This document shows, one piece after another, positions 10,675 to 51,785 of a stretch of 64,000 nucleotides of DNA. The notes under the pieces were generated by a model. It was given only the letters and a program-made list of their open reading frames with translations, searched no databases and was not told where the DNA came from. A program made the translations under genes and the position numbers. Source of the DNA: Marsupella aquatica (taxonomy: Eukaryota; Plantae; Marchantiophyta); contig OZ316894.1 in NCBI GenBank assembly GCA_973895155.1, positions 14,996,699-15,060,698 on the forward strand. The letters are read 5' to 3'. The number at the start of each line of letters is the position of its first letter. Position 1 is the first letter of the stretch.

Positions 10675-10705
10675 CACTAGAAGAAACCGGGCCATTCTGA
10701 GACCC
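10675..10705 (+). mobile_element. Orphan CACTA terminal inverted repeat
   Basis: CACTAGAAGAAACCGGGCCATTCTGAGACC resembles the TIR at 17025 (CACTAGTAGAAACCGGGG...TTTAGACC). It lies exactly where the DUF7869 reading frame stops. Confidence 0.7.
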
Positions 10706-11044: not shown

Positions 11045-11684
11045 TAAAAGAGTAAGATAAAGGGGAACATTGGGAAGAGACCGACAGGCCACATGGGGGA
11101 ACGGTAGCGAGAAAGGAGGGGTGGAGCTTGATGGTCACCAAATATTCAAACAGGGTCGCCTTGCTTGATTCGCAAACTTTCACTTAGGATGTAGATTAAA
11201 GCATTAGAATGCGAGCTTCAATCACTATGGAAAAGTAGGTTTTTGCTGGGTGGCCGAGGAGGTTTAACCCAGGTTAAGGGTAGACTCAACCTTGGGTTGT
11301 AACACTCCCCCTTGGTTGTACCGTGGAAACATGTTATGTGCAACCAACAAGTCTACCATATATGTGGAGTGTAATTTTTGTATCTTTAAGATATGGCCTA
11401 ATGAAAAGGAGAAGAAATTAGGGGGGGATGTAACCTCATTAAAACCTCCCCTACTTTCTTTTGGGAGGATAGAGTGTTACCATCCCTCCTATTCTATAGT
11501 ATAATGTAATTGGTTTGTGAGGTAAAGTTTAAGTAGACTAAGTGGTCTTTAGGCTCTTTTGAGGTGAAGTGTAAACATAAGTAGACTGTGTAAACATAAG
11601 TAGACTGTGTAAACTAAGGTAAGTGGTGTATGGGTCTGTAAAGCTATTCGGCCAAGTTAGGTTGTTGTAAAGCTAGTCGTAGTT

Positions 11685-20800: not shown

Positions 20801-21004
20801 CTGGCTCCTTCTAGGGTATGGATTATGTGATTTCTCTCTAGCTGCCCACCTACCTGGGACTTGATGAGGGCCCTGTGCATCTTGCATAGGTGCATTTTTC
20901 TGTGAGCCCCCTGCATCTGGGTCTCCATCCATATCCAATCTTTCCTCTTCACCCCACTCTCCAAGCCCCATGTCTGTCTCCATGTCATCACCCTCTTCCC
21001 CCAT
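17851..21004 (-). CDS. CACTA TnpA/ORF2-like multi-exon gene
   Basis: Exon-like ORFs 20633-21004, 20353-20559, 19655-20299 (QWTRLIKGFMSEAGQSKSELMSNARGKVKHLSQAGRGSY, Transposase_24-like), 19022-19303 and 17851-18444 (KFHGKVVPDDHVVV..LPFP..AVGSLVLWP, typical En/Spm C-terminus). Exact exon limits uncertain. Confidence 0.75.
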
Positions 21005-30100: not shown

Positions 30101-33100
30101 TGAAGAGTTGTAATCTTCTCAGCGGTGCGGTAAGCCCATAATGCAGAATGGAGCTTCACATCCCAATCTGTCTTGTGAGATTCTACCATTTTATTCAGAA
30201 TCTTGCCCATAATGCCATTAGCTCTCTCGGTTAAGCCATTAGCTCGGGGGTTGTAAGGAGTAGTTTTGCGATGCTTGATAAGATAAAGGTCAGTGATTAA
30301 CTCAATAGTTGAGTTAAGAAAATGCAAACCCCTATCGCTTACCAACTCCAAAGGACAACCAAACCGGGTGATAATGTGCTCAAAGAGAAATGCAGCTGCG
30401 GTTATAGCATCATTCTTGCGAGTAGCTTTCGCCTCTACCCATTTGGTGGCATAATCAGTGGCCAGAATAATATATTTGCTTCGGCTTTTCCGAGCTGCTG
30501 GAGAAATTGGGCCAATAAAATCAATCCCCCATTTCTCAAATGGTGCCAACGGAAGGATAGGCGTAAGAGGCCATTTGGAACTAGCAGTGGGCTTCCCGAT
30601 CCTTTGACAGGGATCACAGGTCTTAATAAAATTGTAAGTATCTCGATGCATAGTAGGCCACCAGTATCCAGCATCCAAAATTTTCTTAACTGTGGTATTC
30701 ACAGCATAATGCCCACCGGTTTCTCCTGAATGTAAAGCTTCAATTACTTGGGGAAGTTCCCTATCCTCTAGACAACGTCGCAATTGTTGATCAGGACCTT
30801 GTTTAAACAAAGTGCCCCGAATAATGGTATAGGGACCCACCTTATGAGCAAAGACAGCTCGTTCTTCCGCATTAAAGCCTTCAGGGAACGTTCCATGAAG
30901 CAGCATGTGCACAATATTAAAATATCGAGAAGACTCCCCTTCAATGTGCCACAAATGCTCGTCAGGAAATTCATCGGAGAGATTATGCTGATTCTCCGGA
31001 CCAGGTAACCGAGATAGGAAGTCTGCATTCTCATGATGTTTGCCAGGTCGGACATGAACTTCATAATCAAATTCTTGGAGTAGTAAAACCCAGCGGGCTA
31101 CTCGTCCTGAGAGATCCACTTGGTTAACCAAATATTTTAAGGAATTATGATCAGTGTGAAAAGTAACCTGATACCCCAACAAATAGTGACGAAATTTCTT
31201 ACACGCAAAGACGATGGCCAAAGCTTCCCGTTCAGTGACGGAGTAGTTTTTCTCGGCTGCACTCATTTGGCGGCTGGCATAGTAAATTGGATGGTCACGG
31301 TTTTCCACATCCTTCTGACTGTGATTAGCTCCAATGCAGAACGCAGAAGAGTCAATGAAGACATGAAACTTCTTAGTCCAATCTGGGGGTGACAAAATAG
31401 GTGCAGAGATTAACCGATCCTTGAGCAACTGGAATGCTTGCTGCCGCTCCTCATTCCATGTATATTCCACATCACTTTTTAACAGTTGGGTTAAGGGTAA
31501 GGCAATATTAGCATGTTTATAAATGAACCGACGATAATACCCCACATGTCCCAGAAAAGCACGAAGCTGCTTTAAATCGGTCGGTGGTTGCAACTCCATA
31601 ATTACTCTAACCTTCTCTGTATCAACCTCAATGCCGCGTTGTGAAATAACATGGCCTAACAAAATTCCCTCCTTCATACCAATAAAGCACTTTTCTGGAT
31701 GAAGACACAACTGAGCCTCTCTACACTTCTGAAATGTCTTCTCCAAATGGACGAGGTGTTCAGCCGCTGACCCGTAAACACAAAAGTCGTCAATAAAAAT
31801 CTCCATGAAATGCCGCAAATATTCTTGAAAAATAATCATCATAATGCGCTGAAAAGTACCCGGGGCATTACACAGCCCAAAAGGCATCATGGTAAATGCA
31901 TATGTACCCCAGTCGGTGGTGAACGTAGTCTTGTCGCGATCCTCCTTCCGAATGGACACCTGGTTATAACCAGAGTACCCATCTAAAAAACTGTATAACT
32001 CATGCAAGGCCACTGAATCAAGTACCAGATCAATAAATGGCAAAGGATAATGATCTTTCCGAGTGGCAGCATTCAACTTCCGGAAGTCTTGACAAACGCG
32101 AATTTTCGTTTTACCATCGGGTCCCGGCTTTTTGGGGACAATGACAATTGGTGAGACCCATTCACTACTCAAGACCGGGTAGATAAATCCAGCAGTCGTG
32201 AGCTTGTCCAACTCGTCTTTAACCAGGATGGAATATTTGGGATTCAAACGGTACTGTCTCTGTCGGACAGGTACTGCTCCTTCCATAAGGTCAATACGAT
32301 GTTCGCCCAAATGTGGATGGATACCTTTTAAATCAGAATGACTCCAGGCAAAGACATCTTTATACTGGGTTAATAAACTGATATACTGTTCCCGTAGCTC
32401 TCCTTCGATATGCTTACCAATATTCAAAAACTTGCCTGGCTCAATTTCGATTTTCTGACAAGCTTTTGGATCCACAATTCCATCCGTGAGGTTTGCCGGC
32501 TGAAGTCCAAGTTTGGATACTTCTGGTGCAAATGGCTCAAGGGTAGCTGACACTCCCATATCATGGTGTAAATCCCTATTAGCCTCAGTATTAGGAGGTT
32601 CGTCTGCTGCTGGGCCCACTTCCGATGATGAAGTTAATTGTCAGGAGGGCCTAGTTGGTTTTATGGGAGCATCAGACAGATAAACTTCCAAGTAACGAAC
32701 TTCCTCCAGTTCAAATTCCAATGGCTGCAGGACTAGCGAAGAGGTCGAAAAATCCGAGGTGTACCCATCATCTGTTTGTGTTTCTCCAAAATGTGGTTCC
32801 GGAACCCAACTAACAGTCACCTTAGGCTTCCCAAATGAAAGCTCTTGAGATTGCCAATTAACCTGAACTTGAGCCTTATACAACCATGGTCGGCCTAACA
32901 AAACAGGAAAGCTGGATGGTATTTCCGGATTAATAACCACATAATCCAACAGAAAAGGGACACCAGCAATCAAAGTTTCTACTTTGGTCAGCTTCCCTAT
33001 GGGTACCACACGAGACTGATCCGCCATGCGCAAAATCTTGGGAGTGGGCTCAAACTTAGTGAAACCCAAATTAAATGCTGCTGACTGTGTAATCAGATTA

Positions 33101-36100
33101 ACGCTGGCTCCTCCATCCACAGGAACTCTCCGAATGACACACCCCTGGATTTGAACCTCAATTTCCATCGGTCCTTTGTCCTCCCACTCTGTTCGTAGCA
33201 CATCCACAGAAGGTAACTTCTTCTTCCTCCGTTTTCCTGCAAGGAGGCTCCTCAGCTGTCGCCTATAAACCGGATTGTCCTGTAATAATTCCCCAATGGT
33301 GATATGTGCAGGATGATTCTTGACATCTTCAACAATATCATAACCTGGATTTTTCAGTGGCTCTTTAGCTTTGACTACTACTGGTGGGTTAGGAGATTGC
33401 ACTTGCTCCTTAACTAGCTCTTCCAGATGGTCTTTCACTTCCAAAGAGATGTCGGGCAAGAAGTATTTTGGGTCATATCGGTCATAAGCAGGGTCGTCTT
33501 CTTTGTCGAGGCCTTCCTTACATGGCTTGCGCCCTTCATCCTTGGGAGCTTTCGCGACCTTCTGATGCTCGTGCTTCTTGGTCTCCTTTTTCTTCGAACG
33601 AGTAGTTGCGTAAATATTAGTCAGAACTTTATCCCGATTCTGAACTCGATCATTCGGCATACCAACTACTTCAGGTTTCACTAAATGACTTACCAAGACA
33701 TCAGGCACCACCCCGGATACTGGTTGATGAAAAAGTGAATCTGGCTTTAATTCCACCCGATTTACATCCATATGTTGAATGAAGCTGCATTGCTCCATCT
33801 CTTCAGAATAAACCATCCGAATCTTGGCTTCAGGTCGACTTGCTTCTTTAACTGGCTCTTGAGCAAATCGAACCATCAGCCTAGGCTTAGCCGGATTCGG
33901 GCATTCCACCGGTAAGTGTCCTTCTTTTCCACAGTTCCCACAGACAGGTGTATACCCCACCTCCTGTTTGGGATAAGGGCACTGGGGTGAATAATGATCA
34001 GGTTGGCCACAATTCCAACAAGCCCCTTTTTGACGCGGCATTCCTCGTGGTGGGTATCCTCCCGGGGGTCCCATGGGTGGTCTTGACGTTGGTTTATTGA
34101 AAGTGGGCTTAGGTGGTCCCCAAGTCGGTCTGGAAGCAGGAGGTGGTGGGAAATACTGTCCAGGGGGTGCTGTTTGGACGGTATACGTGGGATCGTACTC
34201 ATACTCCTCAGCCTCTTCTTGACCATCTACATAATTCACCGGGGTTCGTAATGTGGGGCACTCGTTCGGGTAATGGCCCTGCTGACTGCATCGGGTGCAC
34301 CATACGTTCATTCTCATGGGAGCAGGCAACCTTCGTACTGGTTTTACCGCGGCGATATTGACATTCAACTTGGACAATTGGCCAGAGAGTTCTTCCATCA
34401 TGCGATCCATCTTCTTCTGGTTGGGAACTTTATTATTCCCTTTTACAGAGGATTTCTTCTTTTTAGGAGCAACGGATTCTGAGTCGGAACTTGAGCTTGA
34501 ACTATCACTAGTGCTCGAATTTGTACTCTCGTCCTCCTCACTAGTGCTACTTTCACTTGATTCCGTCTCCGAGTCAGATTTAGACCTGGACGTTTTCTTC
34601 TTCTTTCTTTTGTCTTTCTTCAGGTCCTTCTTAACTCGTTTTCTCTCTGAAATCTCCGAGTCTACGTACTTCTGGGCTGCCTCTTGTACTTCTTCCAAAG
34701 TGGTGCCACCTTCTCGTCTCACGTAACGAGCAATCCTGGAGGGTAAACCGTTAATAAACCAGTCCTTGATAGTAGATTTCGAGGTAGCTGGATTATATTG
34801 ATCTACCAAATCCAATAATTTGTCGGCATATTTCCTCACAGACCCATGTTTCTTCATGTGCAGATGTGAGATTCGGGCAAAGGCACGCGCAGCTGCTCCT
34901 TCTTCTTTATATTTGGCCAAGAAAGCAGCCTTCAATTTCCCCCAATCCTGCTTGTCCGGAAAACGGTCATACCATTTCTGAGCACCCTTTTTCATTAGAC
35001 CACCAAACAGATTGGCTTTTTCAGCGTCTTGACTCTGTCCATTGGATGCAGCTGCAGCTTCAAATTCTTTCAAATACACCTCTGCATCCTCCTTGGAAGT
35101 ACCGAAGAACCGGTCGTACCTCACATTATTTCGAGCCATCGTGGTTGGAGCTAGGAGGGTAACGAAAGGAAGAGCTGATCGGGTAGCAAATGGGTTTGGG
35201 CTGCCCAAGCCTGAACTGCTGCTTGTCTCACTAGAAGACGAACCACCGGCTTCACTCAGTGGTTCTGGATTATCCAATTGTGAAAGATCGACAGAATTAT
35301 CCTGGGCCAGCGATTCTGCAACTGTATTCTCGGGCAAACCCAAATTTCTTCCTTCGGTATGAGATAAGGCCCTCTCAGTGGTACTATCCACACCAGAGTC
35401 AATTTGGTTCACCGAACGTACTGTCTGCTGGCGGAGCTTGGTCTTTTGAGAACCAATAAGTTTTGGACCTGAACGAAGATTTACAAACAGGGGTCGGGTC
35501 GACGTGGGCCTTTCCAAAGAGCCACTTGCCTCTTGAATAGATCCCACTTGTTTCCACACACTACCCGGTGCAGGTGCTCCTGGTGACTGGAATTCGGGTA
35601 ACAATGTGCGAGGGGTCACTACTAATTTTGCAGCATCCGAATTACTGGAGGTCTTGGTAGGTTTTCTTTTATTCGGTGGATCTCCCTCAGACATCCCTCA
35701 TTCTCCAAGCACGGGTGATTTTGAGACACCAGACCCGCTCCTCAGGAGTCTTTATGCAAGGAGTCACCATTTAGGTGCGACGTTATCACCCCACTCCGGG
35801 AGATATGAACCTGCTTCCTCAAAGTGACTTCCCGTAGCGTCGTTCAACATCCCTTGCATGATTCCTCCCCCTTGCTATCCCGTAGCTAATACTTCCCTTC
35901 AGTGACCAGCCGAGATTCTAAAACCTCGTTTTCTCTGGTGCGTCCTTCAGGTTGAGACGCGGAAAGGCACACCAGAAGCGTCGCGCACGTTGGTTCGTCA
36001 CAGATTCCACCGGACGCTGCTCACAGCGTCCACTGGGATCGGACGCTACTCGAAGCGTCCTGACTTGCGGAATCTTCTGGGACGAATCGCATTGGACGCT

Positions 36101-38434
36101 CTTCGCGGCGTCCTTCCTTATCTCCTTTACGGTGGCGATTACTGGAACCGGGCGTTCCCCATAATCTCCGACTTCCTTCACCCTGAAATTCCTTTACCAC
36201 ATGGTACGCTACACTAGGCCATCCTACTAATCAGACGTCTAACTCCTTCCTAATCTTCTACGCAATTCCTGGTGCATGATTCTTTCCGCTAACTCCCGAA
36301 TGGAAATGACTAAATATCACTCCTGTGTGATCCTACCATTCAGCCTTAATATTACTAAATGCAAACTTTCATCTTCCCACCAGGTGATAGTTAACCAATG
36401 TATGCCATTCCTCCCTCTCAGGCTCAGAACCCAAGAATTAACATAACGATTCCTCAAATTCCTAATTCTTAATGTTCCCAAAGATCGGATAGGTGGCATC
36501 GGTCACACGAACCAGGATGGTTGGACAATTTTACAAATCATACGTCCCGAGCAACGTTAGAATAACTTCACTTGTCACTCAAAGTGTCTTTGGTGTCTTC
36601 GACTATCTCCAAAGCAACTTGACGAGCAACAGCTCCTCTCTGTGAGGCCTTTTCTGGTGGGAGGGCGGTTTCTTCTCTTAAGTTTGGCACCACAAATTTT
36701 TCCAATACTCTTAAGAGAGCTTCCGGGGCGCTTTGGATAGAGTACGGCATCACCTCGAAATGGAAGCTCTTCATCTTTTTAACTGGAGTGATGACGCATC
36801 TTCACAATTATAGTAGAACGTGAATTCCTCTCCCGTCTAGCTCCTTCTGGCATACACTGCCTGTACGTCAATTCAATCTTAAATTCGTTCCCCGGCAGCG
36901 GCGCCAAAAAGATGTCGTATAGTGCTAAGTATCAAAAGTGACTCTCCTCACCTAAAACCAGGGTTTCGATCCCTTTAAGAACAGATTTCAGAATGAATTG
37001 TATAACTTTTATCACTCCGAGTGATTTAGAGTCTTGAGCTCTATGTTGACTTCACTTCTCAATAAAAAAATCGAATAAACAAACAACAAAGTAACTGAAC
37101 TTCTGATTTATGAATTAGAGAAGAAATGAGTAAGGATTTAGAGACTACAAGCTGCTACTGCCACTCCTTCAGAAAGGATTTGGGCTCAGTATAGACATGA
37201 AATCTATCTCATAATTCATCCATCTCACTCTTCAAAACACAAAGGTTAATGATAATGGAATTCTCAATCTGATGAAGCAGAAGCTTTCTGATTGCAAATG
37301 AATGATATGATTTAAAATGCCGTCAACATGGTTTGACATCAGCGATACGCAATTCAGTCAAACTCTAAACCATATTCCAGAATCAAAGCAACAGTACTAA
37401 CTACTCTGAGAATCAGAATTTACTTCTCATTTATCATTAACTATTCTTGAATTGGCTAGCGAATCCCGACTCTGCAAGCAAGCCTAGCAGTGAATTCAAT
37501 ACGAGTTTCAGAAATCTGCAACTGAATTCAATCACCACAGGAATCTCTTGAATTCAATCTTAACTTCAATCAATATAGCTTTACTTCCATACAAAACACT
37601 CACAGCATGCCTTGTTACAATGGAAGGAGGAGAAAACTATTCAGAAGACTCAATTCTGAATACAGTATTAACTCTATTTCTCTCTACTTCAAATGAGCAT
37701 TCTACTCTGTCTTATAAGTGCTGGAATCCTAAAATGGAGGAGGTAAGAACAGTCGTGCCTTTCCAAGCTTAAAACTAAACAAGGGAGAAGCACAGCATAA
37801 GTACTTCAACAAGGGTGGTAGAATACTACTTTACTAGTAATCTACTTCAAAAACTAAGTGTTGAGCGGACGCTGCTAGAAGCGTCGGGAGAATCTGGACG
37901 CTGCTAGAAGCGTCTTAAGTAAAACCAACGGACGCTGCTCACACTGCTCACAGCGTCAATACTAGGGTGGACGCTGCTCACAGCGTCGTGTGTTGAAGCT
38001 GACGCTTTCCACAGCGTCGGTCGAAATCCTCATAGAGTCTTGGTGGCGGTCGGGCACTGCCAAAAGCGTCATGAGGAGGTTGGACGCTTCCGCAGCGTCT
38101 TGAGTAAAAGAAACGGGCGCTGGTCACAGCGTCGGGCAAAGTACACTAGGAATCGTCAGGAAAGCCGGAGATGTCAAATATTTCTATAAGTGTCCAGAAC
38201 AAGTAAATGTTGGCCGGAAGGTGTCTAAAGTGTAAGTAAATCTTGTGATATGCTAAAAATAAACAAGTTTCCAGAAAAAATTGCAGGGACACCCATACCA
38301 CATTGGCACTGTGTGCATGGGCATCTCATCCTCCTACTCCTACCTTGGGCGTCCCGGGCTTGTTCACGCATCCACAATTTAGAATCATGATGCCTAATCC
38401 TAAATGGGTTGTGAAGAGGCAACCTTGGAGCCAT
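21182..38434 (-). CDS. CACTA TnpD-like transposase (Transposase_21, DUF4218, DUF4216), disrupted by the gypsy insertion
   Basis: ATG 38434 ..MRCPCTQC, gypsy insert, then ..IDACPDGC..LRHFPLIPRL..DGVNPF..DYPG; DVMHIEKN, MKTHDYH, WMYPMERY; EPFVFPSQVEQAFF. GT-AG introns at 23091-22957 and 22054-21942 restore the frame. Confidence 0.93.
24756..26145 (-). repeat. 3' LTR (1390 bp)
   Basis: TGTCG...CCACA; no differences from 36913-38302 seen by eye. Confidence 0.97.
26146..26163 (-). other. Polypurine tract
   Basis: Minus strand AATTTAAGTGGAGGGCTA abuts the 3' LTR. Confidence 0.8.
26223..26699 (-). CDS. Extra ORF: second retropepsin-like (aspartic protease fold) protein
   Basis: FVIDPGSRINFLS...GRVKGVPIQIGEEFHDLDFYILD...MILSTTW aligns by eye with the element's own VPVDGGASVNLIT...GKLTKVETLIAGVPFLLDYVVIN...VLLGRPW. 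Confidence 0.65.
   Translation of the reverse strand: MRDIKRCCHLYVYKPLLLQHPAIVSFFLLRIDIYLLMWDIKATMDCWNSLPRAFQHSFEGKIKLGGHAIQHFVIDPGSRINFLSHRLCQQFVHQEVQPISAQISIDGRIINLWGRVKGVPIQIGEEFHDLDFYILDSDISQLPSMILSTTWIIKPEYY
26712..27143 (-). CDS. Extra ORF, 143 aa, unknown function
   Basis: ATG-initiated, intact, tightly packed between the 706-aa and protease-like ORFs on the element strand. Confidence 0.45.
   Translation of the reverse strand: MESILQQQQILPMTSHPRIRSLIRTYEPGKAVPPIDKDRRHKFSEFEIWCWVYMLRRAQAPFPPLVPEIPWPYPYYVWVCPGGFAIPIKYEKKLVKLREQLITKQCMLPASQGFKSLRCLAFLPIIPSYPDVIIQGVLSRTQI
27165..29285 (-). CDS. Extra 3' ORF (706 aa): N-terminal globular domain shared with the LTR-borne ORFs, plus an acidic disordered tail
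   Basis: MGLKKLLQLPW..LIAKVYSTP..NGWLAADC..INWTKVL..YLAPYLAHIY. Intact; no obvious transmembrane segment. Confidence 0.8.
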   Translation of the reverse strand: MAETELTTRPILADIPSNAVHRRQLKTALAKMGLKKLLQLPWKICEFSLIDQGVWDAEERIGVRSRPSVWTEALIAKVYSTPMEGEDLQRVDCEPRVYVESFFALGSFKRRNGWLAADCLDNSLQRLFRFLAPIFYPESQTRITLSFAATVICSLEQTQSINWTKVLHRVIHTQVKNFRSRLKTGKIRCTYLAPYLAHIYHKYDCLLVLEKDFYRNNQRASTGEANYMPEVREVRANSTVVELCAILDCEEPELVGEVRKLKETRASAEGSDDPILHQPREAQVAEDVPSAMPTGLEHSMSPRLSCSPCAAEPIYDVDQDNSASRMNVEDEVRVDEEGFSGEPLQHSTAEDEYDGFTSTPVLVPIEANSDALQALQEYDSSDSLSSSPNIGEIPLVQESEILSSEIVKLVKVDSEDAIVDIDEVGEPVTSPQSVARYPAWSTPGSLISIPLDITKELDEAIAAIGAPSFPPVKWVSPEDELIEGGSAGFPSRNQVSGNMGISVPILVPETPASTTSSAPVSLATNEDKNIREEFSVTYTRKSWKRLRHAISRQIFPEASSQDFEQGEAPIGTDELPLPVLLTDRTNQEVSLPSDNSKEELPVLVPMHPIADQPATVAREEFEPLEPEPSAPSSPVTLPIRPVKESVIPSAMPDVIFRWIGAPSDGEEDEDPRIIRVPPRLRHTVDLPPRNPIPNLASIHRWEKKHF
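29668..32640 (-). CDS. pol: pol: reverse transcriptase, RNase H, integrase
   Basis: FLDGYSGYNQ, MPFGLCNAP, FIDDF, FIDSS..EREALA..TDH, HHCC, GIDFIGP, SDRG, NGLTER, GPY. In frame with gag across one TGA. Confidence 0.97.
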   Translation of the reverse strand, partial: QLTSSSEVGPAADEPPNTEANRDLHHDMGVSATLEPFAPEVSKLGLQPANLTDGIVDPKACQKIEIEPGKFLNIGKHIEGELREQYISLLTQYKDVFAWSHSDLKGIHPHLGEHRIDLMEGAVPVRQRQYRLNPKYSILVKDELDKLTTAGFIYPVLSSEWVSPIVIVPKKPGPDGKTKIRVCQDFRKLNAATRKDHYPLPFIDLVLDSVALHELYSFLDGYSGYNQVSIRKEDRDKTTFTTDWGTYAFTMMPFGLCNAPGTFQRIMMIIFQEYLRHFMEIFIDDFCVYGSAAEHLVHLEKTFQKCREAQLCLHPEKCFIGMKEGILLGHVISQRGIEVDTEKVRVIMELQPPTDLKQLRAFLGHVGYYRRFIYKHANIALPLTQLLKSDVEYTWNEERQQAFQLLKDRLISAPILSPPDWTKKFHVFIDSSAFCIGANHSQKDVENRDHPIYYASRQMSAAEKNYSVTEREALAIVFACKKFRHYLLGYQVTFHTDHNSLKYLVNQVDLSGRVARWVLLLQEFDYEVHVRPGKHHENADFLSRLPGPENQHNLSDEFPDEHLWHIEGESSRYFNIVHMLLHGTFPEGFNAEERAVFAHKVGPYTIIRGTLFKQGPDQQLRRCLEDRELPQVIEALHSGETGGHYAVNTTVKKILDAGYWWPTMHRDTYNFIKTCDPCQRIGKPTASSKWPLTPILPLAPFEKWGIDFIGPISPAARKSRSKYIILATDYATKWVEAKATRKNDAITAAAFLFEHIITRFGCPLELVSDRGLHFLNSTIELITDLYLIKHRKTTPYNPRANGLTERANGIMGKILNKMVESHKTDWDVKLHSALWAYRTAEKITTLHTPFYLTYGLNSIIPIEFSLPTERILVPHRLSPSDSLSHRFSNIVKLEEVRLLALDHTVTIQNQRKLAYDKKLRVVQLDVGDLALVFDSRYMLFPGKLHTHWIGPYRVTHIWDNGSVSLTTLDGHPLNTRINGFRIKRYYESSI
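32641..35694 (-). CDS. gag: gag-protease (1017 aa), three CCHC knuckles
   Basis: Retrotrans_gag-like core; CTRCSQQGHYPNEC, CWNCGQPDHYSPQC, CGNCGKEGHLPVEC; protease VDGGAS..LLGRPW. Confidence 0.96.
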   Translation of the reverse strand: MSEGDPPNKRKPTKTSSNSDAAKLVVTPRTLLPEFQSPGAPAPGSVWKQVGSIQEASGSLERPTSTRPLFVNLRSGPKLIGSQKTKLRQQTVRSVNQIDSGVDSTTERALSHTEGRNLGLPENTVAESLAQDNSVDLSQLDNPEPLSEAGGSSSSETSSSSGLGSPNPFATRSALPFVTLLAPTTMARNNVRYDRFFGTSKEDAEVYLKEFEAAAASNGQSQDAEKANLFGGLMKKGAQKWYDRFPDKQDWGKLKAAFLAKYKEEGAAARAFARISHLHMKKHGSVRKYADKLLDLVDQYNPATSKSTIKDWFINGLPSRIARYVRREGGTTLEEVQEAAQKYVDSEISERKRVKKDLKKDKRKKKKTSRSKSDSETESSESSTSEEDESTNSSTSDSSSSSSDSESVAPKKKKSSVKGNNKVPNQKKMDRMMEELSGQLSKLNVNIAAVKPVRRLPAPMRMNVWCTRCSQQGHYPNECPTLRTPVNYVDGQEEAEEYEYDPTYTVQTAPPGQYFPPPPASRPTWGPPKPTFNKPTSRPPMGPPGGYPPRGMPRQKGACWNCGQPDHYSPQCPYPKQEVGYTPVCGNCGKEGHLPVECPNPAKPRLMVRFAQEPVKEASRPEAKIRMVYSEEMEQCSFIQHMDVNRVELKPDSLFHQPVSGVVPDVLVSHLVKPEVVGMPNDRVQNRDKVLTNIYATTRSKKKETKKHEHQKVAKAPKDEGRKPCKEGLDKEDDPAYDRYDPKYFLPDISLEVKDHLEELVKEQVQSPNPPVVVKAKEPLKNPGYDIVEDVKNHPAHITIGELLQDNPVYRRQLRSLLAGKRRKKKLPSVDVLRTEWEDKGPMEIEVQIQGCVIRRVPVDGGASVNLITQSAAFNLGFTKFEPTPKILRMADQSRVVPIGKLTKVETLIAGVPFLLDYVVINPEIPSSFPVLLGRPWLYKAQVQVNWQSQELSFGKPKVTVSWVPEPHFGETQTDDGYTSDFSTSSLVLQPLEFELEEVRYLEVYLSDAPIKPTRPS
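36889..36906 (-). other. Primer-binding site (tRNA-Asp type, as in Athila)
   Basis: Minus strand TGGCGCCGCTGCCGGGGA, 6 nt from the 5' LTR. Confidence 0.85.
36913..38302 (-). repeat. 5' LTR (1390 bp)
   Basis: Direct repeat of 24756-26145. Confidence 0.97.
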
Positions 38435-38759: not shown

Positions 38760-39329
38760 CTACCACATCAAATACGGATACCAATCCTGTTGTCGATGCC
38801 ACTCAGCCCTGAGGTACTCAGGCATGTACATTAAGTCATCAAGGTCTAAACCCTGCTCATGCCATGGTGGTCTTCGATCCGTGCCTACAAGCAATGGCAG
38901 CAGTGCCCTCCATGGTGCACATGTTGCTACCAAGTCCCTCCACTGGGTACTAATTAGTCTATATTTGCAGATATCTTGTGCGCCAGACACCACAAGAACC
39001 CTCGGCCAGACATGTGTAAGAACTATATCATCTGCCAAATCAGGCAACAAGGAACCACCTACAGCATCGTGCTTGTCTAACTCATCTGCTGAAAAGTAAA
39101 TGTCCTTTTCCGACTGTGCATCCTCATTCACCACAGCATTCACAACACATCCAAGGTCTGCAGGCATTATCTCGGATGGAGCTACACTCTGTCTGGTTAC
39201 CAATCCACACAAGTAAGCCCAAGCAGTAGCCATGCACGATGCAACCCGTAGGAGGACCCTACATAGGGCCTGACGGTCTGGAAGAGGCAGCATACCCACC
39301 AAAGTCTCCAGCCAAACAGAGCCCAGCAA
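38760..39329 (-). CDS. CACTA cargo: small F-box-like protein
   Basis: SLLPDLADDIVLTHVWPRV...ICKYRLISTQWRDLV matches the F-box pattern LP.d....I...l......r.Vck.Wr.l. No substrate-binding repeats follow. Confidence 0.65.
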   Translation of the reverse strand: MLGSVWLETLVGMLPLPDRQALCRVLLRVASCMATAWAYLCGLVTRQSVAPSEIMPADLGCVVNAVVNEDAQSEKDIYFSADELDKHDAVGGSLLPDLADDIVLTHVWPRVLVVSGAQDICKYRLISTQWRDLVATCAPWRALLPLLVGTDRRPPWHEQGLDLDDLMYMPEYLRAEWHRQQDWYPYLMW

Positions 39330-39469: not shown

Positions 39470-40318
39470 TCACTCTCTCCCACCTTTGCTAAGCATACAT
39501 CTTCGCTGAATCTTGGAGGGCCAGGCCTCAAAAATATCAAAGTCCCAAGCATTCTGTCGCTTCCCTCTAGCTGCTGATTCCAGAAGCCAATCAGGGGAAA
39601 GCACCCAAAGATTGTTGTTCATGATAAAATCACGCACTGTTGTCTTAAAGAATTTTCTGCATATTTTCATGTATGACAGACCTACAACATGAGTGGAGGT
39701 TTCTGTTAGACTCTCCTCCATTGTCCCACCTAGCTCAACAACTATAGACTTGTACAGTCTGCACTTAGTCTCCCCAATTCCTTCTTCTGCAAATACCACA
39801 TTGAACCCCTTCATAATGGTATTTCTCTCCTTGCCATGCTCATTCAATATAGCATCTGCACGCATAGGATGGTGTCCTATGTTGACAACAGGTCCATATT
39901 GGACAGAAGCAAAGTTGGGTTTCTCTGCCGCTGCTTCATAGGCTTCCTTTTCAGCCAAAGCCTCTGCAGTGGCCTCCTCACTCTCCCACAACTCATATTG
40001 CTCAGTACTCTGTACACACCTATGTTTAACAGAATCGGTCAGCCAAGAGACTTCAACTACTTTTAGACCTTGGTTGGTAATGGCAGAATCAATGAAGGAC
40101 CATGACCACTTGTTCATCACATCCAGCCATGTCCCCGCAACAACATGTGTAGTCTGTGGAGTGATGTCCTTGACTTCAGTCCCATGGAACTCTGAGAATC
40201 ATTTTTGTACGATTGGCCAACTCACTTGGGTGAACCCATAGTGGCCAGGAATCAAAATGGCTTTGATTCCAGCCAATAGAGGCGGGTGGTCAACCTTTGT
40301 ACGTTTTCTAGAGGCCAT
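39470..40318 (-). pseudogene. CACTA cargo: tandem BRCT protein with one premature stop
   Basis: ATG 40318 MASRKRTK..; TGA 40199-40201. TTHVV..KVVEVSWLTDSV and LGGTMEESLTETSTHVV..WVLSPDWLLES are two BRCT signatures. Confidence 0.8.
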
Positions 40319-40916: not shown

Positions 40917-41597
40917 TCAAAGCCAAGAAATGTGATCTCTCATGGGAGTGTGCAAAGTAGGATCTATGGCATGGCGATGACAATAGAAGATCCATCGATC
41001 AACACCATGTGCAGAGTGATCATAGATGTGTCTGTCACAAGCATAGCCTTCTGCTTGACGCTCCTTCAAACAATGAAAGTGCCACATGGTGGGACACCTA
41101 ACACAGTGGACTATGTCCACCCAGAAATCTTCATCGTGCTGACCACATGCCTTGCACTTATGAAGTGGGCAAGCTGTGGCAAGATCGGGCAAACATGAAA
41201 AACAAAAGAACCTCACACAATATCTGTCAGGGCATTTCCTAACAAGTGGTGGAGCATCAACAGAGCCCTCATAAGACCCCAACTTCCCACACTGTGCACA
41301 CTTAGCCTGCTTCTCCAAACAATCAGTGCACATCCAGCCTCCCTGGTGTGCTGACGGGAGGCCCACCCCTGGACAGTTGTTTTCTGCAGCAAGGTCAGAC
41401 TCCGGGTTGAGGTGGAAATGCCTCATGCAAGGGCCCTCACATATGGCTAAGCCACCACCATCGTCACAAATGGCACAACAATGAGGTGCCTTCTGGAAAA
41501 TCTGACTTGCGGAGAAGTTACTACCATCTGGCCCAACTACACCTGTGTTGCTCACCTCTGTCCCCCGCTTCTTGGCTCGGATTTTAGGGCGTGCCAT
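40917..41597 (-). CDS. CACTA cargo: EDM2-type composite PHD finger protein (226 aa, intact, intronless)
   Basis: CAICDDGG..CEGPCMRHFH..C..CGKLGS..CPLHKCKAC..CVRCPTMWHFHCL..IFYCHRHAIDPTLHTPMRDHI follows the EDM2 PHD region (CAICDNGG..CPLHKC..CRRCPKSYHRKCL..IYC..HEID..L.TP.RDH). Basic NLS-like N-terminus. Confidence 0.85.
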   Translation of the reverse strand: MARPKIRAKKRGTEVSNTGVVGPDGSNFSASQIFQKAPHCCAICDDGGGLAICEGPCMRHFHLNPESDLAAENNCPGVGLPSAHQGGWMCTDCLEKQAKCAQCGKLGSYEGSVDAPPLVRKCPDRYCVRFFCFSCLPDLATACPLHKCKACGQHDEDFWVDIVHCVRCPTMWHFHCLKERQAEGYACDRHIYDHSAHGVDRWIFYCHRHAIDPTLHTPMRDHISWL

Positions 41598-42266: not shown

Positions 42267-42716
42267 CTAGAGCGTGTGATCCAAACATGTGTAGACACCA
42301 AAGTGACCGGTGGTGGGGTCTGGGAGGGCAGGACAAGTGACATCGCCAGGCACACTGCAGGATGGCGAGTGGTTCCAGATGATACATTGTGCTCTGTGAA
42401 AAAACCGACATCCAAGAGAACGGTCATCCAACTCTAGGCCAGAAGCCCTACAGGCAGGACAGTCATATTGGCAACTGTGCACACACCCTTGGGCCCTAAT
42501 TTGTGGCGGGTCATGTATGAGAGACAGAAATACCAAGGATGTTGGGAAGGGTGGAGAAGCAGGTACAGGCCGGCTGTAGTTGTTCCTGGCAACAACTGGG
42601 TACTCAAAGTACCATGCAGACTGGGCTGGAAGGATCCCAAGTCTGACATACTCAAGGCGCAACATCTCTGCCTTGCGTGCAAGCCGCACATGTTCAGCGT
42701 TGCGGGTCCTCACCAT
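42267..42716 (-). CDS. CACTA cargo: small Cys/His-rich ORF, unknown function
   Basis: ATG start MVRTR, CVHSCQYDCPAC..CRFFH..C..H..C; co-oriented with the other cargo ORFs. Confidence 0.4.
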   Translation of the reverse strand: MVRTRNAEHVRLARKAEMLRLEYVRLGILPAQSAWYFEYPVVARNNYSRPVPASPPFPTSLVFLSLIHDPPQIRAQGCVHSCQYDCPACRASGLELDDRSLGCRFFHRAQCIIWNHSPSCSVPGDVTCPALPDPTTGHFGVYTCLDHTL

Positions 42717-43513: not shown

Positions 43514-45645
43514 TGAGCTTGCAGCAAGAAGTGAAGGAGCATGGCCAAAAGCAGAAAAGACAGACAGGTTTTACAAGAAGAAACTAACAACCGCCAATCT
43601 GCTCAAATCCGTTGCATAGATCAAACCCTCCAAACTACACAGCCCTCCTTTGAAAACAATCCAATGTGCTTTGGCTGGTGGATGACAAGGACTGGGAGAA
43701 GAGGAAACGTCTACACAATCAATCCCAATGACGGGACACAGAGACCAGGCACAGAGAGGATTTGTGCTTAGACAAAAACCACAAATTGTAGCATGGGCGC
43801 CATAGCATTGGGCGGCAATGGGAAGAATTATATCAAATGAGTGGACAGAGAATGAACAGTCCGGTTATAGGCAAACAGCGACTGATGCCCTGATGCAATG
43901 AAACACGCATTGACATAGCGGAGGGACATAAAAACTACATAAGCCAACTTACTGACCTTTTAAGGCCCACAATTTCAAGGGGAGGGACAAAGACAGCAAT
44001 AACAGATGCAGAGACAAAGCTGTACTCTGTCAATTGAGTAGGCAAGTGGGTGGGTGAAGATCAACAACCAATGTAGCAGCGCAACCAGAGTAGCAACAAA
44101 GAAGCAGGTTGCCCTCAGTCTCCTATTTTTCAAGCAGCTCGTGCTCGCGGTCAATCTCCTATTCTGCAAGCAGCTCACGCTCGTCCCTCTTGTTCTGCAA
44201 GCAGGTCATTCTTGTCGGCGATGGTGCAAGCTGTCCTCCTAAACTCTGACACTCAAAATGAAAAGACCAAGCACCTCCAATCTGTTTGATCCCTTCCGCA
44301 AGCAGCCGAGCGGCAGATGATAATGTAGGGATCAAGAACCAAGTGCCAGGCGGACATTGCACAAAATGAGGACCGGGGGCAGAGACAAAATCTACCGAAA
44401 TCTACCGAAATCTACTTCTTGGGGTCCAGCCCACGGATGGACATCATGCAAGGTGGTCAAAAATGGTAAGTGCAATTGTTGGAGAGCTGTACTCGCGATT
44501 ACTAACGGTGCATCCACAAAACGCGTCATCAAGTTGTCAGTGCGGCCACAACAATTTTGACAGTCTCAGGATCACAGGTCCACAAACAAGTTGCAAATGA
44601 AGACACACAATGTCCAGGAGGGAAAGTCCGCAACACTAACCCTTTGTAAAGCCCCCGAGCTTACCTTCTAGCTGCCGACGCAAAGAGAAAACCTACTCGG
44701 ACACTGAAGCAACCCTAAACTCAAAGTCTCACCTTAGCGCAACAACTCCTGGATTGGATTCAGCTAGCTCAGGCTCAATGAAGCATGTCGCCTCGGGCTC
44801 TCCGGATCCTCCCAAGGCAGCAAACAAGTTAGGGTCCACGGTCCTTGTACCTTCACCGCACCGTTGTGTCCTTCCCAATGCCTCCTCTGTAGTTGCGTCT
44901 TGTCTGCAACTCTACAGCTCCCCGTGTTGCTCTGCCGCACTTAGTTATATTCCAACGCCCGATCGTGACCAAAAAGAGTTTTCTCCTGCTGGACAGCACT
45001 AGGCATTTGTTCAATCTCTTGATCACGCGTAAGCAGCTACAGGTATGAATCACTCAGTTGGCAGCTCAATACGCTTACAGCAAGAGGGCGCAATAGGTAG
45101 AAGCTCGCGCTACCTAGACCAGCACAAGGACAAAGCATTAACATTGAAACTGTACCATGGAGCTGGAGAAAACCACAGAGTAATTGAAGCCTAACAATAC
45201 CCTTCTTAGCTCCCGACTCCAAACTCTCGGCTCCCAGTTTGCAAGAACAAGCACTATGAAAATATGGATTCCCACATTGACTGTGTCCGCAGAACAGATG
45301 CAACCCGCATGCAACTTCACCAGCTCAACGGCAGCTTGACAACTGAAGGACCTCCCAATGAGCCTCACGGCCTCCCGATGCTCGTTATGGGTGCAGCAAA
45401 AGGGTCTATACCACAACTGTGACCGAGATTGTCACCCAAAACCTTGAAGAAACCCCAACCTCCGACTCCTCAAACTCCGACAAGCTCCTCACGAACGTTG
45501 CAGCAGCCACAACCTTCTTCGCCCTACCAGCCAAAAACTAAATGTCCCTAAAGGAGATCGAGCAGGAATGCAGGTCTATGAGTAGACTGCAAGCGCAAGG
45601 TTAGATCACTGCAACTGCCTGAACACTGCTCCTCGAGAGCATAAA

Positions 45646-48600
45646 TGTGGTGCGTCCCATGGCTCCCTAAACCCAAGAAACCCCCCAGCTCAAGCCGATT
45701 CCCGCAGGTTTCGTGCTTGGCGAGGCCGTTTCCGCGGCTTAGCGGCATGGGACGCTGCTAACCTTCTACTACTACTATTAACATTTTACACACATATACT
45801 GGACAGATCCTTCATCGGGTCATGAGATACGTAGCCGGCCTAATATAGGCCTTCCCCTGTCTTCCCCTGTCTTCCCCTCCGTCTTGTTAGGTATGTTTGG
45901 ATTCCGCCGCCGGAATGATCCCCAATAGGCTTGGTTAAGCCGCTAAGACCTCTCTTAGCTCGACACATCCAACTCTCACTCCCCTGCTTACTTTCCTTCC
46001 TTCTGTTGATGTGGGCACTCTTCACACAAGTTAATGCGACACACAAATAGCAAAATGACTCATTCTGACTGAGTCATACCATGCACTTGCCATACAAACA
46101 GTACATCTCATACACAAGTTCTGCGAACTAAGCCGTGAGGCCAACTCTATTCAGCTCTTAGGCATGAGGAAACATGAATATACACAAGGGTCACTGTATG
46201 ACTAACCGAGAGCTTCTCGTACTACTTGATCCCAGCCCGGCTGGTGCAAACTAAAAACTTGCTAAAGAAGAGGCCCTGAGCTCCCCGCTGCCCAGGTACT
46301 TATCCTGGTAGTGGATCCGCCATTCTTTGCATCGTAAGCCTAATCTACTTAACAGTAATCTACTTGCCCGAATCTACCTATGTACAGCAAGGCAGGAGCA
46401 CAAGTGTTGCTCCTACCAGTGGGACCGCAATCCCACTAAGCTAAGTGTCAGGGCCGCTCCTGGTTCTGATCCTAATCCTAAACGTGGAGATCCGCGCCCG
46501 CCCTGCCCACTCACGCCTCCTCCCTCCACGTCCGCCCTCCCTAAAAGGAACGGCGCCCTTGCACCGTCACGACACCGGTGGTGGATCCTTAATGGACGCC
46601 CCCAACGCTTCCTCCTCAGCCACTGCCGTAGGCTCATTCCCTGACAGATTACCTGCCCTTGACTGAGTCAACTCTCCATCGGCCTGACTGGGTCCACCAT
46701 CGGCGTCGGCATCGGCTCGAGAATCGGTTACAGCCTCAGCCTCGGCTACGGTCTCCCCGGCCTGCTCAAGAGGCGGATCTGGAATACTGGCCTCCTTACT
46801 GAGTAGTTCGGCTTGGGCCGCACCATCCCTACCTGTGATCATAGCGGGATCTATTGCCGTATTCATGTCGGAGGATGGTGCTGGTTCTACCTCTTTGGTC
46901 ACCACGGCTTGTGGAGTCGGATTACTCCTTGACCCTGAAGGTTTCCGCTTTTTCTTCTTTTCTGGTTCGGCAGCTGGTCCCTTCCCCTTCCCACTTACCT
47001 CCGGCACTGGTGCAGTTGGCGCGGCTTTTTCTTCGGCCAGTACCACTCCTGGTAACTTGGTTGCCCCAATTGGAGTTGGGCCTGATGAAGACAAGCACCT
47101 AAATACTGCGGCTTGTTTCTTCAGCCGCTCCGTTTGGTTGTCGGCCCGCCGCTGGAGGTTCTCCATCTTCCTCGTGATTTCCTCCAACTCCTCCTGGGTC
47201 TCATCCAGGTCCTTGCGTGCCTCCTCTAGTTCCTTCTGGGCTTCCTCCCGTTCTTGTTTCAAGGTAGTCCTCTCCTCCTGGGTTGCTTTTAGCTCCTTGT
47301 CGAGCTCTGCAATGATGACAGACTCCATCTGGTTCATCTTGGCGTAAGTCTGTTCGAGCATCTCGTCCTTCTCCCTTAGGTCGGCCTTGAAGCTGGCCGT
47401 CAGGGACGCAAGCTCCTGCTGCAGCGCCATAATCCCTTGATAGGATTTCCCTAACTCGGCCTCCTTCTGCTCAAGGGCTCCGCGGATTTTCTTGAGCTCC
47501 CCTTTCAACGCCCATTCCTTTCTTTGGGTCTCCGCCATGGCCCGGCTGTTGGCTGTTATGTGGGCCTCCTCTGTATTCTTCAGCTCTTGCTTCCACTTCT
47601 CCCTCTCTTTGATCGTGTCGGCCAACTCTTCCTGCGTCTGAGTCAGTTTATCCTTGATATTCTGATTATCAGCCTGCGCGGTGTCCAACTGCCCCTGCAT
47701 GATGTTCAGCTCATGTCGTTTAATCCGCAGTTCATCTTGGGCTTTCTTGGCCGTCCTTAGATCTTCAATCTCGGCTTCCATCCTCCTAAGCCGCCGAATG
47801 ACCTCGTCCGTCTTGCTTCTCTCTAAAGCCACCGCTTCTTCTAATTGGTGCTTCTCCAACTGCTCCCTATGGAAAAAGGGTCCTACCTCCAACTCCTCTC
47901 CAAAGATGCCGAGCGCAAGTTCCCCACACATCTCACCATACTCCATGGCTCTATTCTTAGCGTAGGTGGAGTAAGTAGAAGTGATCGGCATCGCCCATCG
48001 CGGCCTCTGCTCCCAAGCCGTCCTGCGGATCTCTTCAATCGTGGCTAGAGGTTTGCTTCCTTTTTTGGCTAGCCGCCTGATGTCCTCCGGCCAATCTCCT
48101 CCTGGTAAATCCTTTTCCTTAGCCAGGGCGGCCTCCTCCTCCTGCTTGATTCGCTCCTGAAATTCCTGCACCGTCTGTTTTATGCCGTCGAAGCTCGGGG
48201 GAGCAACATCTGGTGGGGGAGACTCAGGGCTACTCTGCTGGTTGGGGTCCCCTCGCACTACCCTTGGAAGTGTGGGGACAAACCGGCCACAGGTCCTTAC
48301 TCTTGGAACGTGATGGTCCGACCCATAGCCGGAATTATCATGGCTGCAGTCCTCCACTGCCTCCTCTACCTCTTGGACGTCCGGCTTCTCCCTCTCCTCT
48401 TCGTCGGTAGGAGCTTCAGGCAATTCTGCCTCAGATTCGGAGCTTGAGGTTCCCACGTACATTCGAACACCTGGCTTGGATTCCGGCCTGATTCTCTCCT
48501 TGTCTCCAGCAAAGGGGTTTTCTCTTGTGAGCCGGTGTAGGCCTACCTCTATAGTAGTGTCCTGCATTGTTGCCATTGTTGTTGTTGTTGCCGATGCCGA

Positions 48601-50314
48601 TTTCTTTTCTTTCTCCAGTAGTTTCAGCAGACTCTGCATGCCTGGTTGCTGTATCGGCAAGTCTTCCTTCCTGGGCCTAAACACCTGCTCGATCGTAGGA
48701 CTAACAGGTGGTTGAGGCTTCTCAGCCAACGGCCTCGGCGTTGGAGCTTCCTCGGGTGCCCTTACCTGCAGGGGAAGTACCGGGGCAAAAGTCTGACCTC
48801 TGGCATACCGGCACAACAGCGGCATGTGATAGCCCAGCCGCGACACGCTCCCCATGCCGATTACCTACTGCTCCTCCTTTAAGATCTTCTTCAATTGGTT
48901 GAGGAGGTACCCGTTGTAGTCCCGGCTTGGGTCTGGCCTTTCTGCCAGATAGACCTGTGCCTTGTCGATCTCTGCCCTCGGCAAGTTACAATGCATGGTC
49001 ACCCGCAAGAAGTCGATCATCTCTCCTATGTGCGGGTTGGTGCAGGTGTTCCGGAAGAAGCCATTCCTCGTTGATGGCCCGGGGAACGACCGGAACTCCT
49101 TGTCAGGCAAGGTCTTCCTGGTATCAACTTTGGTCTTATTGCCTATCGGCAGGCCAAACACTTCGGCAATTACCTTGGGAGTAAGATAGAAATCCTTCCC
49201 ATATATCCTCGTGCAATTGGTCTCGGGTTCCCATGACCCCACGAATTCTAATAGGTCTGACTCCGGTACCTCCGGCTTCAGCCATGGTAATCTTACAAAG
49301 GCCTCCAAGCCGGATCCGGCCATGAAGCCTTGGTATCTCTTGGTCTGCATGGCCGTAAAGCATGCATCCTCCTCCCGTGCAAAATGTAGTTGCACCTCCA
49401 CCGGTAGGGTTGCCGCCCAGCCTTTCCAGGTGTCATCCCTGGTTGGAATGGCCTTGATGGGATCGACCTCCTCCTCTTCGGCTTCTCCCTGCCTCCTGCT
49501 CTGCTGCTCGGCTGGCTTCTTTGGTGCCGCCGACCTCGTTCTTTTTGCCGGGGTGGCTTCATCGTTGACGGCTCCCTTCCTCTTCATCTCTGCTGCCGTG
49601 GAGGTTTCTCCTAGCACCGTTGCCTGGGTCCACCTTTCCGTGCTACCCTTTAATTCCCAGTGTATGTCGTTGCAGTTCTTGATGGCCTCTCGGATGCCGA
49701 CGACGCTGTCTTTGCAAAACAGAAGATCGTCGAGTTGATTGGAAGTAGGCGTCCACAGGAACTCGTCCTTGATGAGTTCGCCTCCTAAGAAAGCCGTCTT
49801 CTGCAGCTCCCACAATTGAGCGAGCTCCTGCCATTCTCGAGCTGCCCTTTCTGACTCCTCGTCCTCGTAAGTCTTGATGTACTCAGTTGCCTGTTCGAAC
49901 AGGCATCCCCAGAAATGTGCCGCTTGATTGACGTTGCTCATACCCTCCTTAGGTCGATCATCGGTATCTACTCTCTCCCCGAGTGCTTGCCTAAGCAGCT
50001 GACAGTAGTTGGCCTCCCGTAGTCGTCTGCCTAGTTCGTGCTCGCAAATGAGCCACCATCTCCTGCAAGCGCTCCTTACCCCTCTCCTCTGCCGGTCCTT
50101 CTTCCCGTTGATCCTTCCTAGCCGCCGACGCTTAACGCGCCCTAACCCTAATCGGGTTTTCACCCTCAGCCTTACCTCCGGCCTCGGCCCGGGTTCCATG
50201 GTTGCCCCTAATTGTTTATATTTTCCTTGTTTTGTCCCTATACTAAGGTGTTCCTAGGGTGCCTTCCTGCTTTACCCACTTAACCGGCCGAGTGATTCCT
50301 GTCTAGGCATCACA
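45646..50314 (-). mobile_element. 4669-bp TG...CA element (giant solo-LTR-like) containing a long ORF
   Basis: TGTGGTGC...GCATCACA (7/8 inverted match). TSD ATAAA at 45641-45645 and 50315-50319. No gag/pol. Confidence 0.88.
46567..50199 (-). CDS. Element-encoded ~1210-codon protein (track ORFs 444 aa + 762 aa in one frame): shared globular domain + long coiled coil
   Basis: A single TAG (48865-48867) separates the in-frame ORFs and falls inside the conserved domain. Homologous to 898-3534 (EF..TR..FGLP..NGF..TC..P.I.E..F..PR.EI..AQV). Confidence 0.8.
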
Positions 50315-51785
50315 ATAAACAAGCACATAACGTGCGGGAAGTTCACTCCGCAATGGTTGCAAAAAGTGGGCAACACTGAAAGGAAAACCCTACGTAAAAC
50401 CCCGAACACTCCACCCCTCACGTTCTAAGTTCAATGACAATGGCGAAAACTCCAAAGAGACTCCCAAAGTGAAGTTTAGTGCCTGAAACCGAATTAGGGG
50501 AAGCCACTCAGCCTTACCGTTTGAGTGAGCCGTTGAGTGTCACCCAAAGTGGGACAAAGCTACAAAGTGTTACTGCATGGCCAACTTAGGCAATGAATGG
50601 TCATATTTGCACATACATGGTCGGTAGTGACATTTTATTGCACGCCGTAATCAGGATTAAGGTTGCCCAACATTATATCCGGTCCTAAAATGCAATATTC
50701 CCGGTGCAAGAATGTGACCTAGCTCTAATGTATGAAAAAGGACCGGTACAAATCTACCTTTGTGCATCTTGACCTTTTATAGATGGATTTAGTAATGGCC
50801 AAGAATATCTTGACCATCCCTCCATGGTCCAACCTCCATGAACCCCACTTCATTAAACCCAAAACCTTTTTGGTCACAAATAAGGACATTTAATGAGTTA
50901 TGCCCCTTGCTATCACCCTCTTTATAGATTTATTTTTTTGTTTGAAATTTTACATTTATTCCGCGTGAACCCCACGGATGGGGGAACCAGTAGGCCAAAT
51001 GGCATCATAAAACCTCAACACCAAAGGAGGCAAATAACAAAGAGTTACTCAACCAGGGTCATCAGATCAGGCAAAGATTGCGAAGCCGTTCTTCTAGTGG
51101 TCCATGCAACAAGTAACAACTAGGGAATAAGCACTAGAAGGCGCAGTAGGTCAGCATAGTGTAAGTGTAAAGTGTCAAAGCATTGTCTAGTACTAAATTA
51201 ATCCACCTGATTAGTAAGAAGGGGGTGTATACTGTAATGGGAAAAAGAAAAAAAAACCAAGGCATGAGCAAGGGCCACCAAGAGTGGTGCAGCTATAAGC
51301 TATAGGGATTGAACACAATGCGGGGGGGCAGTGGCACTATGTATGAGGAAATCACGGGAGTATCGGTGTCAAATGAGTCGACAAAACTCCCAGATAGCCA
51401 CACAGTATAAATCAATCTCACAGAAGGCTGCCATCAATGGAGGAAACAATTTGACACGACCCACATCTGAGAGTGTGAATTCGCTCGATCTCCAGCAGTT
51501 CTTTGGCACTCGATAGACGTCGGTGCTTTCGGCTCAAAGATGAAGGAGAATTACCCCTCCTCAACATAGAGTGAACATTACCCATGATGTGCTAGACTAT
51601 TCACCCTTCACAAAGTAGCAAGGTTACTTCTCATAGTCTTTTAGTGAACCATAAAACTCTCATAGTCTTTTCTAGTCTTCAACAAAACCGGTGCAATGGG
51701 TGCGAGTCGTTTTAAGTATGGAAAAAGGACTTAGTGGGCATAGTCCTATAAGGTATGGTCTAAATTGCCCCGGTTTCTACTAGTG

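Follow-up and report, generated by a model that had tools for sequence, protein, structure and literature searches.

In a study of 2014, the Arabidopsis protein EDM2 reportedly bound triply modified histone H3. Its architecture is described as comprising acidic domains, a PGR, a methyltransferase-like ELP domain as well as a proline-rich end (PMC7529245), and it is described as binding H3K9me2 and suppressing cryptic polyadenylation (PMC7529245, PMC10241880). Other means of interfering with silencing or chromatin complexes have been described: VANC binds DNA motifs sequence-specifically (PMC5735166), ALP1/2 act as fake complex subunits (PMC12085086), and histone-mimic motifs have been presented (bioRxiv 2025.01.21.634156). 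Titles and abstract openings in the literature outside subscription journals, Repbase and supplements revealed no EDM2-type PHD gene in a CACTA element and no H3-mimic tail on CACTA PHD cargo, a point on which TE annotation tables could bear; by term count, PHD, BRCT and F-box are absent from the main text of PMC13547354. Here, we analyse a 64,000-nucleotide stretch of DNA of the liverwort Marsupella aquatica (hereafter the window), where a stand-alone EDM2-type PHD gene lies between two CACTA ends.

The CACTA-type locus and its cargo

The features of the locus are the following:

17025-17330, plus strand: 3' end of the element, with its CACTA terminal inverted repeat and the adjoining subterminal repeats (16-bp identical ends)
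17851-21004, minus strand: probable second spliced gene, TnpA-like by position only, no Pfam match
21182-24755, minus strand: rest of the Tnp2 transposase, in three open stretches that are probably exons (PF02992, PF13960, PF13952)
24756-38303, minus strand: nested Gypsy LTR retrotransposon, outside the CACTA proper (identical 1391-bp LTRs, 5-bp target duplication)
38304-38434, minus strand: start of Tnp2, first 43 codons, severed by the Gypsy insert (aligns to residues 21-60 of P0191)
38760-39293, minus strand: ORF of 177 aa that has a weak match to F-box in Pfam (E 0.08, under the cut-off)
39470-40318, minus strand: tandem-BRCT ORF of 282 codons (two BRCT stretches, E 9e-13)
40917-41597, minus strand: gene for a stand-alone EDM2-type PHD array of 226 aa (N-terminus basic and in H3-tail register, fingers at about residues 41-225)
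42267-42716, minus strand: 149-aa Cys/His-rich ORF upstream of the PHD gene, no known family
45646-50314, strand not assigned: nested TG...CA insert of 4669 bp, flanked by a 5-bp duplication and bypassed by contigs in three of four runs
51630-51785, minus strand: 5' end of the element, with its CACTA terminal inverted repeat and the adjoining subterminal repeats (flank differs from that of the other end)

The two ends, at 17025 (plus strand) and 51785 (minus strand), face each other, are identical over 16 bp and have subterminal 7-8-mers in common. CACTA terminal inverted repeats with subterminal repeats, a Tnp2-family transposase and many dispersed copies place the locus with the CACTA/EnSpm elements. 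No 3-bp target-site duplication was found, the flanks being TAC and AAT, and the two ends sit within the coding regions of two different retroelements, so that they may derive from two copies; because of the mismatched flanks, the locus is classed as CACTA-type and not as one intact insertion. The proposal of the initial annotation that a CACTA transposon carries the PHD ORF is thus supported by the matching ends and by Tnp2 on the same strand, but not by the flanks.

Tnp2 was identified by Pfam (PF02992, E 2e-59, together with PF13960 and PF13952) on the strand of the PHD ORF. Its bulk seems to lie 16 kb from that ORF, a gap that the Gypsy insert accounts for: the piece on the PHD side covers residues 21-60 of the homologue and the far side residues 68-190. 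As the insert splits Tnp2, the true beginning of the transposase is at 38434, which is 2.5 kb downstream from the stop codon of the PHD ORF. Riccia provided the sole named transposase match (43%) among the 120 matches listed. The label of the TnpA-like gene follows the gene layout of CACTA elements.

The Gypsy element is very young, since its LTRs are identical; beyond pol it has an additional ORF of 706 aa, and its LTRs contain short palindromic repeats. The other insert has no internal LTR pair and two long ORFs on the minus strand, of 762 and 444 aa, is far deeper than the CACTA in all four runs, and looks like a gene-bearing solo-LTR-like or non-autonomous retroelement, to which an ORF at 1366-3366 also looks related. 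Contigs joining 45640 to 50315 in three of the four runs show that other copies do not have it. Without both inserts the CACTA measures 16.5 kb, and its minus-strand order is 5' end, Cys/His-rich ORF, PHD, tandem BRCT, F-box-like, Tnp2, probable TnpA-like gene, 3' end.

Both the tandem-BRCT and the F-box-like ORFs therefore lie between the PHD ORF and the Tnp2 start, and the region of all three was covered in four of four runs. The tandem-BRCT ORF has an in-frame stop at codon 40 in the window copy, while most other copies are free of it. In run X1, depth over the PHD region was about double that over the BRCT region, so that some PHD-bearing copies may have no close BRCT cargo. Potential splice acceptors preceding the starts of PHD, BRCT, F-box-like and Tnp2 ranked 12, 8, 22 and 29 of 476 by an ad hoc score that is post hoc and weak, which leaves splicing of the cargo genes to a shared leader as an idea only. 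The Cys/His-rich ORF matched neither Pfam nor the PHD family, and its region was deeper than its neighbours across runs.

Elsewhere in the window, two inverted LINE copies (11684-14544 and 57182-60051) are 98.9% identical, the second with an intact 1070-aa endonuclease-RT frame. A decayed DUF7869 element lies on the minus strand at 6300-10400, and the plus-strand DNA beside it (~6400-8400) resembles, by eye, remnants of a methyltransferase and a protease. At 10675-10690 lies another CACTA-like left end, which belongs to a different subfamily and has no partner within the window.

The EDM2-type finger array and its stand-alone family

The PHD gene is a single open minus-strand frame of 226 codons, from ATG to TGA, and the plus strand is closed across the same interval; its earlier description as intronless is borne out for the coding frame only. 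Pfam detected NSD-like PHD1, PHD2 and variant PHD in this order (E 3e-4, 6e-3 and 1e-5), each slightly below its curated cut-off. BLASTP aligned residues 41-225 with residues 225-432 of Arabidopsis EDM2 (P0175; 62 of 211 positions identical, 29%; pairwise E 4e-25), and the alignment extends through the H.ID..L.TP.RDH tail. This bears out the initial annotation, which had proposed a stand-alone EDM2-type array ending in this tail and lacking the rest of EDM2: Pfam and BLASTP found no EDM2 domain outside the finger array in the 226-aa frame, which thus differs from the full EDM2 architecture, and SET and PWWP were absent from the PHD ORF and from the scanned neighbouring ORFs. The features of the EDM2-type module are present, namely the atypical finger array, a long finger-1 His-Cys spacer and the C-terminal tail, and the spacer and tail occur in EDM2-like matches but not in NSD-like protist sequences.

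The fold predicted from 103 sequences had a mean pLDDT of 88.5 and a pTM of 0.83, with a confident array and disordered residues 1-10 (pLDDT ~41); an earlier model based on 6 sequences was poor (pLDDT 50.8) and its fold searches returned weak PHD matches only. With the 103-sequence model, Foldseek gave partial matches, five of them at E <0.001 to PZP domains (TM ~0.2), and an NSD PHD-C5HCH with a target TM of 0.6. NSD2 was the closest solved structure by sequence (E 9e-11, profile search), and sequence searches with the PHD ORF found no EDM2 entry among solved structures. From these models, the PHD ORF likely encodes a folded EDM2-type zinc-finger array.

A word search recovered five stand-alone relatives of 217-245 aa (37-81% identity) that share a common end point. 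A full HMMER scan with the PHD ORF gave 547 matches, 150 of them listed, and recovered plant EDM2, which a word search of longer proteins (2 matches) had missed. Listed HMMER matches and cluster members together bring the stand-alone family to 20 members including the window copy, a count that excludes two fragments without finger 1 and includes three near-copies; at least eight members are partial or frameshifted. Across six family proteins (37-81% identity), 24 Cys/His positions are invariant. This family of element-borne EDM2-type PHD genes is real and conserved. A hint of CACTA context comes from one relative only, P0011 (44% identical to the PHD ORF): it and a Tnp2 of the same type (P0301) are each found on one ENA contig only, 13,432 bp long in both cases, which suggests that both lie on one contig. 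A metagenome scan for PHD relatives returned only one unrelated PHD-repeat locus (L001). Separate short proteins of 270-390 aa made of the EDM2 PHD part only (P0033, P0034, P0043, P0044, P0056, P0057) group with or near angiosperm EDM2.

The 8-12 family members placed on trees form one clade (support 100/100) on a long stem, which falls among plant EDM2-like proteins. A liverwort EDM2-like paralogue was its sister under LG+G4 (81/84), rising to 96/92 in an LG+G4 tree with one extra long sequence and 19 sequences missing; a mixture model did not settle the sister position. In AU tests, three alternative groupings of the family went unrejected: with two NSD-like protist sequences (p 0.215), with vascular-type EDM2 (p 0.117) or with Marchantia/Riccia EDM2 (p 0.204). 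Angiosperm EDM2 as donor or sister was rejected (p 0.005). The comparison with host EDM2 and NSD proteins that had been proposed at the outset thus places the family within the plant EDM2-like proteins, but leaves the NSD-like protist grouping unrejected, and from these sequences the liverwort paralogue is a possible donor.

For comparison with host proteins we used 115 non-family matches of at least 450 aa, 97 of which were parsed, alongside 19 parsed family members. An Asp or Glu at most six residues before the first Cys of finger 1 is present in 97 of 97 long relatives and in 0 of 19 family members, whereas a His at position -2 to this Cys occurs in 17 of 19 family members and in 4 of 97 long relatives. 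Directly before the finger-1 Phe-His, 81 of 97 hosts have a Ser, and all 19 family members a His or Gln. In AIRE-type PHD fingers, the positions so altered line the H3K4 site. Retained are the Asp/Glu after the second Cys (19/19 parsed members) and the Gly-x-Trp of Gly86/Trp88 (6/6 family proteins), which hold H3 R2 and A1. Finger 2 has lost about 19 residues relative to EDM2, and one of its His ligands is a Cys. With the finger-1 acidic residues lost and finger 2 remodelled, EDM2-like specificity is not to be assumed; together with the absence of EDM2's other domains, these changes weaken the suggestion that the protein reads H3K9me2-type marks as EDM2 does.

Copies, selection and the amino terminus

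The PHD gene was covered by 76, 1038, 64 and 25 contigs in the four runs at 80-100% likeness, where depth is not equivalent to copy number. No indels at a 5% share were listed among the contigs of the four runs, and one X6 contig omits 72 nt of the gene. Among the best 40 of 106 variants, 17 were synonymous, 23 non-synonymous and none a stop. Depending on the transition bias, a fraction of 0.21-0.27 would be expected to be synonymous (p 0.0016-0.021), and pN/pS comes to 0.36-0.49. No Cys was altered in these best 40 of 106 variants, and the sole altered His is a non-conserved one. The synonymous signal is driven by transitions (12/19, p 0.006), transversions alone not being significant (5/21, p 0.20). 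Variants were classed one by one and pooled across copies, so that the estimate is indicative; read in this way, the PHD gene is under moderate purifying selection. In terms of the dN/dS comparison suggested in the initial annotation, the overall ratio points to selection, but transversions alone do not. That annotation had also allowed for a gene present in this copy only and evolving neutrally. The many copies, the lean towards synonymous changes and about 20 stand-alone relatives, of which those placed on trees fall into one clade, argue against a single neutral capture.

After its Met, the PHD ORF matches H3 at A1, R2, K4, A7 and K9 (5 of 10 positions). A start of the form M[AT]RxK is found in 10 of 20 family members, from both main branches and with K9 in six, and in 0 of 115 long relatives; between the tail start and finger 1 there are 33 to 49 residues, depending on the family member. 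It is missing in the other 10 of 20, including the close relatives P0003 and P0004. The H3 likeness of the window copy had a shuffle p of 0.008, which became 0.077 with the leading AR fixed. A MAR start also occurs in 10 of the 115 long relatives, nine of these ten being bryophyte, algal or without species label, so that the AR of the PHD ORF may be inherited. A Lys-rich nuclear signal would explain much of the H3-like pattern. The start had been described earlier as NLS-like: it is indeed basic, but it may be an H3-tail look-alike and not a nuclear signal alone. A PDB search with the N-terminal 22 residues of a relative gave no match, and a complex prediction of tail (2-31) and array (32-226), made without alignment, scored 0.00 and has no bearing either way. 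Among EDM2-like proteins of bryophyte, algal or unlabelled origin, a MAR[TVA] start was seen in P0015, P0017, P0018, P0020, P0021, P0025, P0086, P0091 and P0123; it is unlike most angiosperm EDM2 compared and is possibly a conserved N-terminal feature.

Possible roles and comparison with described systems

We tentatively favour, at rather less than even chances, the view that the PHD gene is long-standing, selected CACTA cargo whose product acts as a decoy-type anti-silencing accessory and not as a faithful H3K9me2 reader. This view builds on the observed location, copies, conservation, EDM2 homology and finger remodelling, and on a predicted fold; the product would presumably be expressed, bind chromatin proteins and counter silencing. 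Removal of Met1 would leave a protein that starts with A1-R2-x-K4, with K9 in H3 register. Such an H3-like tail could draw host writers or readers of H3, or fill a PHD pocket, and the array, having none of EDM2's other domains, could engage chromatin or the partners of EDM2, so that the element would be kept transcribed through several upstream genes to the transposase. A bolder form, which we hold to be somewhat unlikely, is that a CACTA lineage of seed-free plants turned the EDM2 module, with which the host reads heterochromatin, into a counter-measure, whose H3-mimic tail and remodelled array would soak up H3K4/K9 writers or readers or jam the EDM2 pathway, forming with the tandem-BRCT and F-box-like genes a multi-gene anti-silencing kit.

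The same gene neighbourhood could be read differently. The PHD, tandem-BRCT and F-box-like products might work together, binding a factor of host silencing or DNA repair and eliminating it or moving it elsewhere, with the fingers binding a non-histone protein. Three protein-interaction modules in tandem upstream of the transposase, covered in four of four runs, would suit such adaptors, as would the loss of the canonical acidic histone contacts of finger 1. We nevertheless consider this unlikely, given an F-box match below cut-off (E 0.08) and the two-fold PHD over BRCT depth in X1, by which some PHD copies may be without a close BRCT.

An EDM2-like reader that masks H3K9me2-containing tails, or promotes full-length transcription through the silenced element, would explain why the entire array and the EDM2-specific tail are kept, along with the Asp/Glu after the second Cys (19/19) and Gly86/Trp88 (6/6); EDM2 itself is described as binding H3K9me2 and suppressing cryptic polyadenylation (PMC7529245, PMC10241880), and transcription of the element would have to pass several upstream genes. 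Pocket-lining positions that depart systematically from those of hosts, a shorter finger 2 and the lack of RFD and methyltransferase-like domains make a faithful reader improbable. More doubtful still is a targeting factor that anchors the transpososome at a chromatin state and directs insertion to repeat-rich regions: both element ends sit within coding regions of other retroelements, and Rehavkus transposases are described as carrying PHD fingers (PMC6446971), but the PHD is here an ORF separate from the transposase, and a single locus gives no insertion statistics. Least probable is passive Pack-CACTA cargo, in which a piece of captured sequence would only ride along, or would protect the element via small RNAs in common with a host gene: CACTA capture of host sequence is described as common (PMC13317346), many relatives are decayed and pN/pS is not very low, but zinc ligands, length and end point are conserved over 37-81% identity with an excess of synonymous changes, and the long stem to all host genes implies little DNA likeness for small-RNA shielding.

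The decoy reading can be set against the systems described so far. The PHD1-3 array of NSD1/2/3 includes the best solved-structure match by sequence to the PHD ORF, that of NSD2; NSD-like sequences, however, have neither the finger-1 spacer nor the tail, and the PHD ORF has neither SET nor PWWP. PHD fingers on mobile DNA are also described for the Rehavkus transposase and for a Chlamydomonas element (PMC6446971, PMC9977147), but in Rehavkus the PHD is fused to the transposase (PMC6446971), and where these papers treat the two cases the fingers are described neither as EDM2-type nor as stand-alone (PMC6446971, PMC9977147).

With EDM2 and EDM2-like proteins the PHD ORF shares the atypical PHD array, the long finger-1 His-Cys spacer and the H.ID..L.TP.RDH tail. 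It differs in length (226 versus 1297 aa), in having no RFD, acidic, methyltransferase-like or proline-rich parts, in the absence of the acidic residues before finger 1, in its shorter finger 2 and in being a single frame inside a transposon. The liverwort EDM2-like paralogue (Marchantia MPTK1_1g03210, Riccia R1sor_003797, Calypogeia CAM6087769; 32% identity over 236 columns) shares with the PHD family an aromatic-x-His before the tail and, in three members, a MAR start; its genes, in contrast, encode 620-770 aa and retain the acidic residues. The pocket changes relative to 97 host relatives represent a natural variant series for the reading of H3 tails by EDM2 fingers.

VANC of VANDAL (Mutator) is likewise an accessory gene of its own that the element encodes, and a role against silencing has been proposed for it (PMC5735166), whereas the PHD ORF is a host-derived zinc-finger array in a CACTA element, with a putative activity. 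If the decoy reading is true, a selected, element-borne derivative of a host chromatin reader, perhaps with a tail resembling that of a histone, would constitute a second anti-silencing route, acting at the histone level, beside the DNA-motif-based action of VANC.
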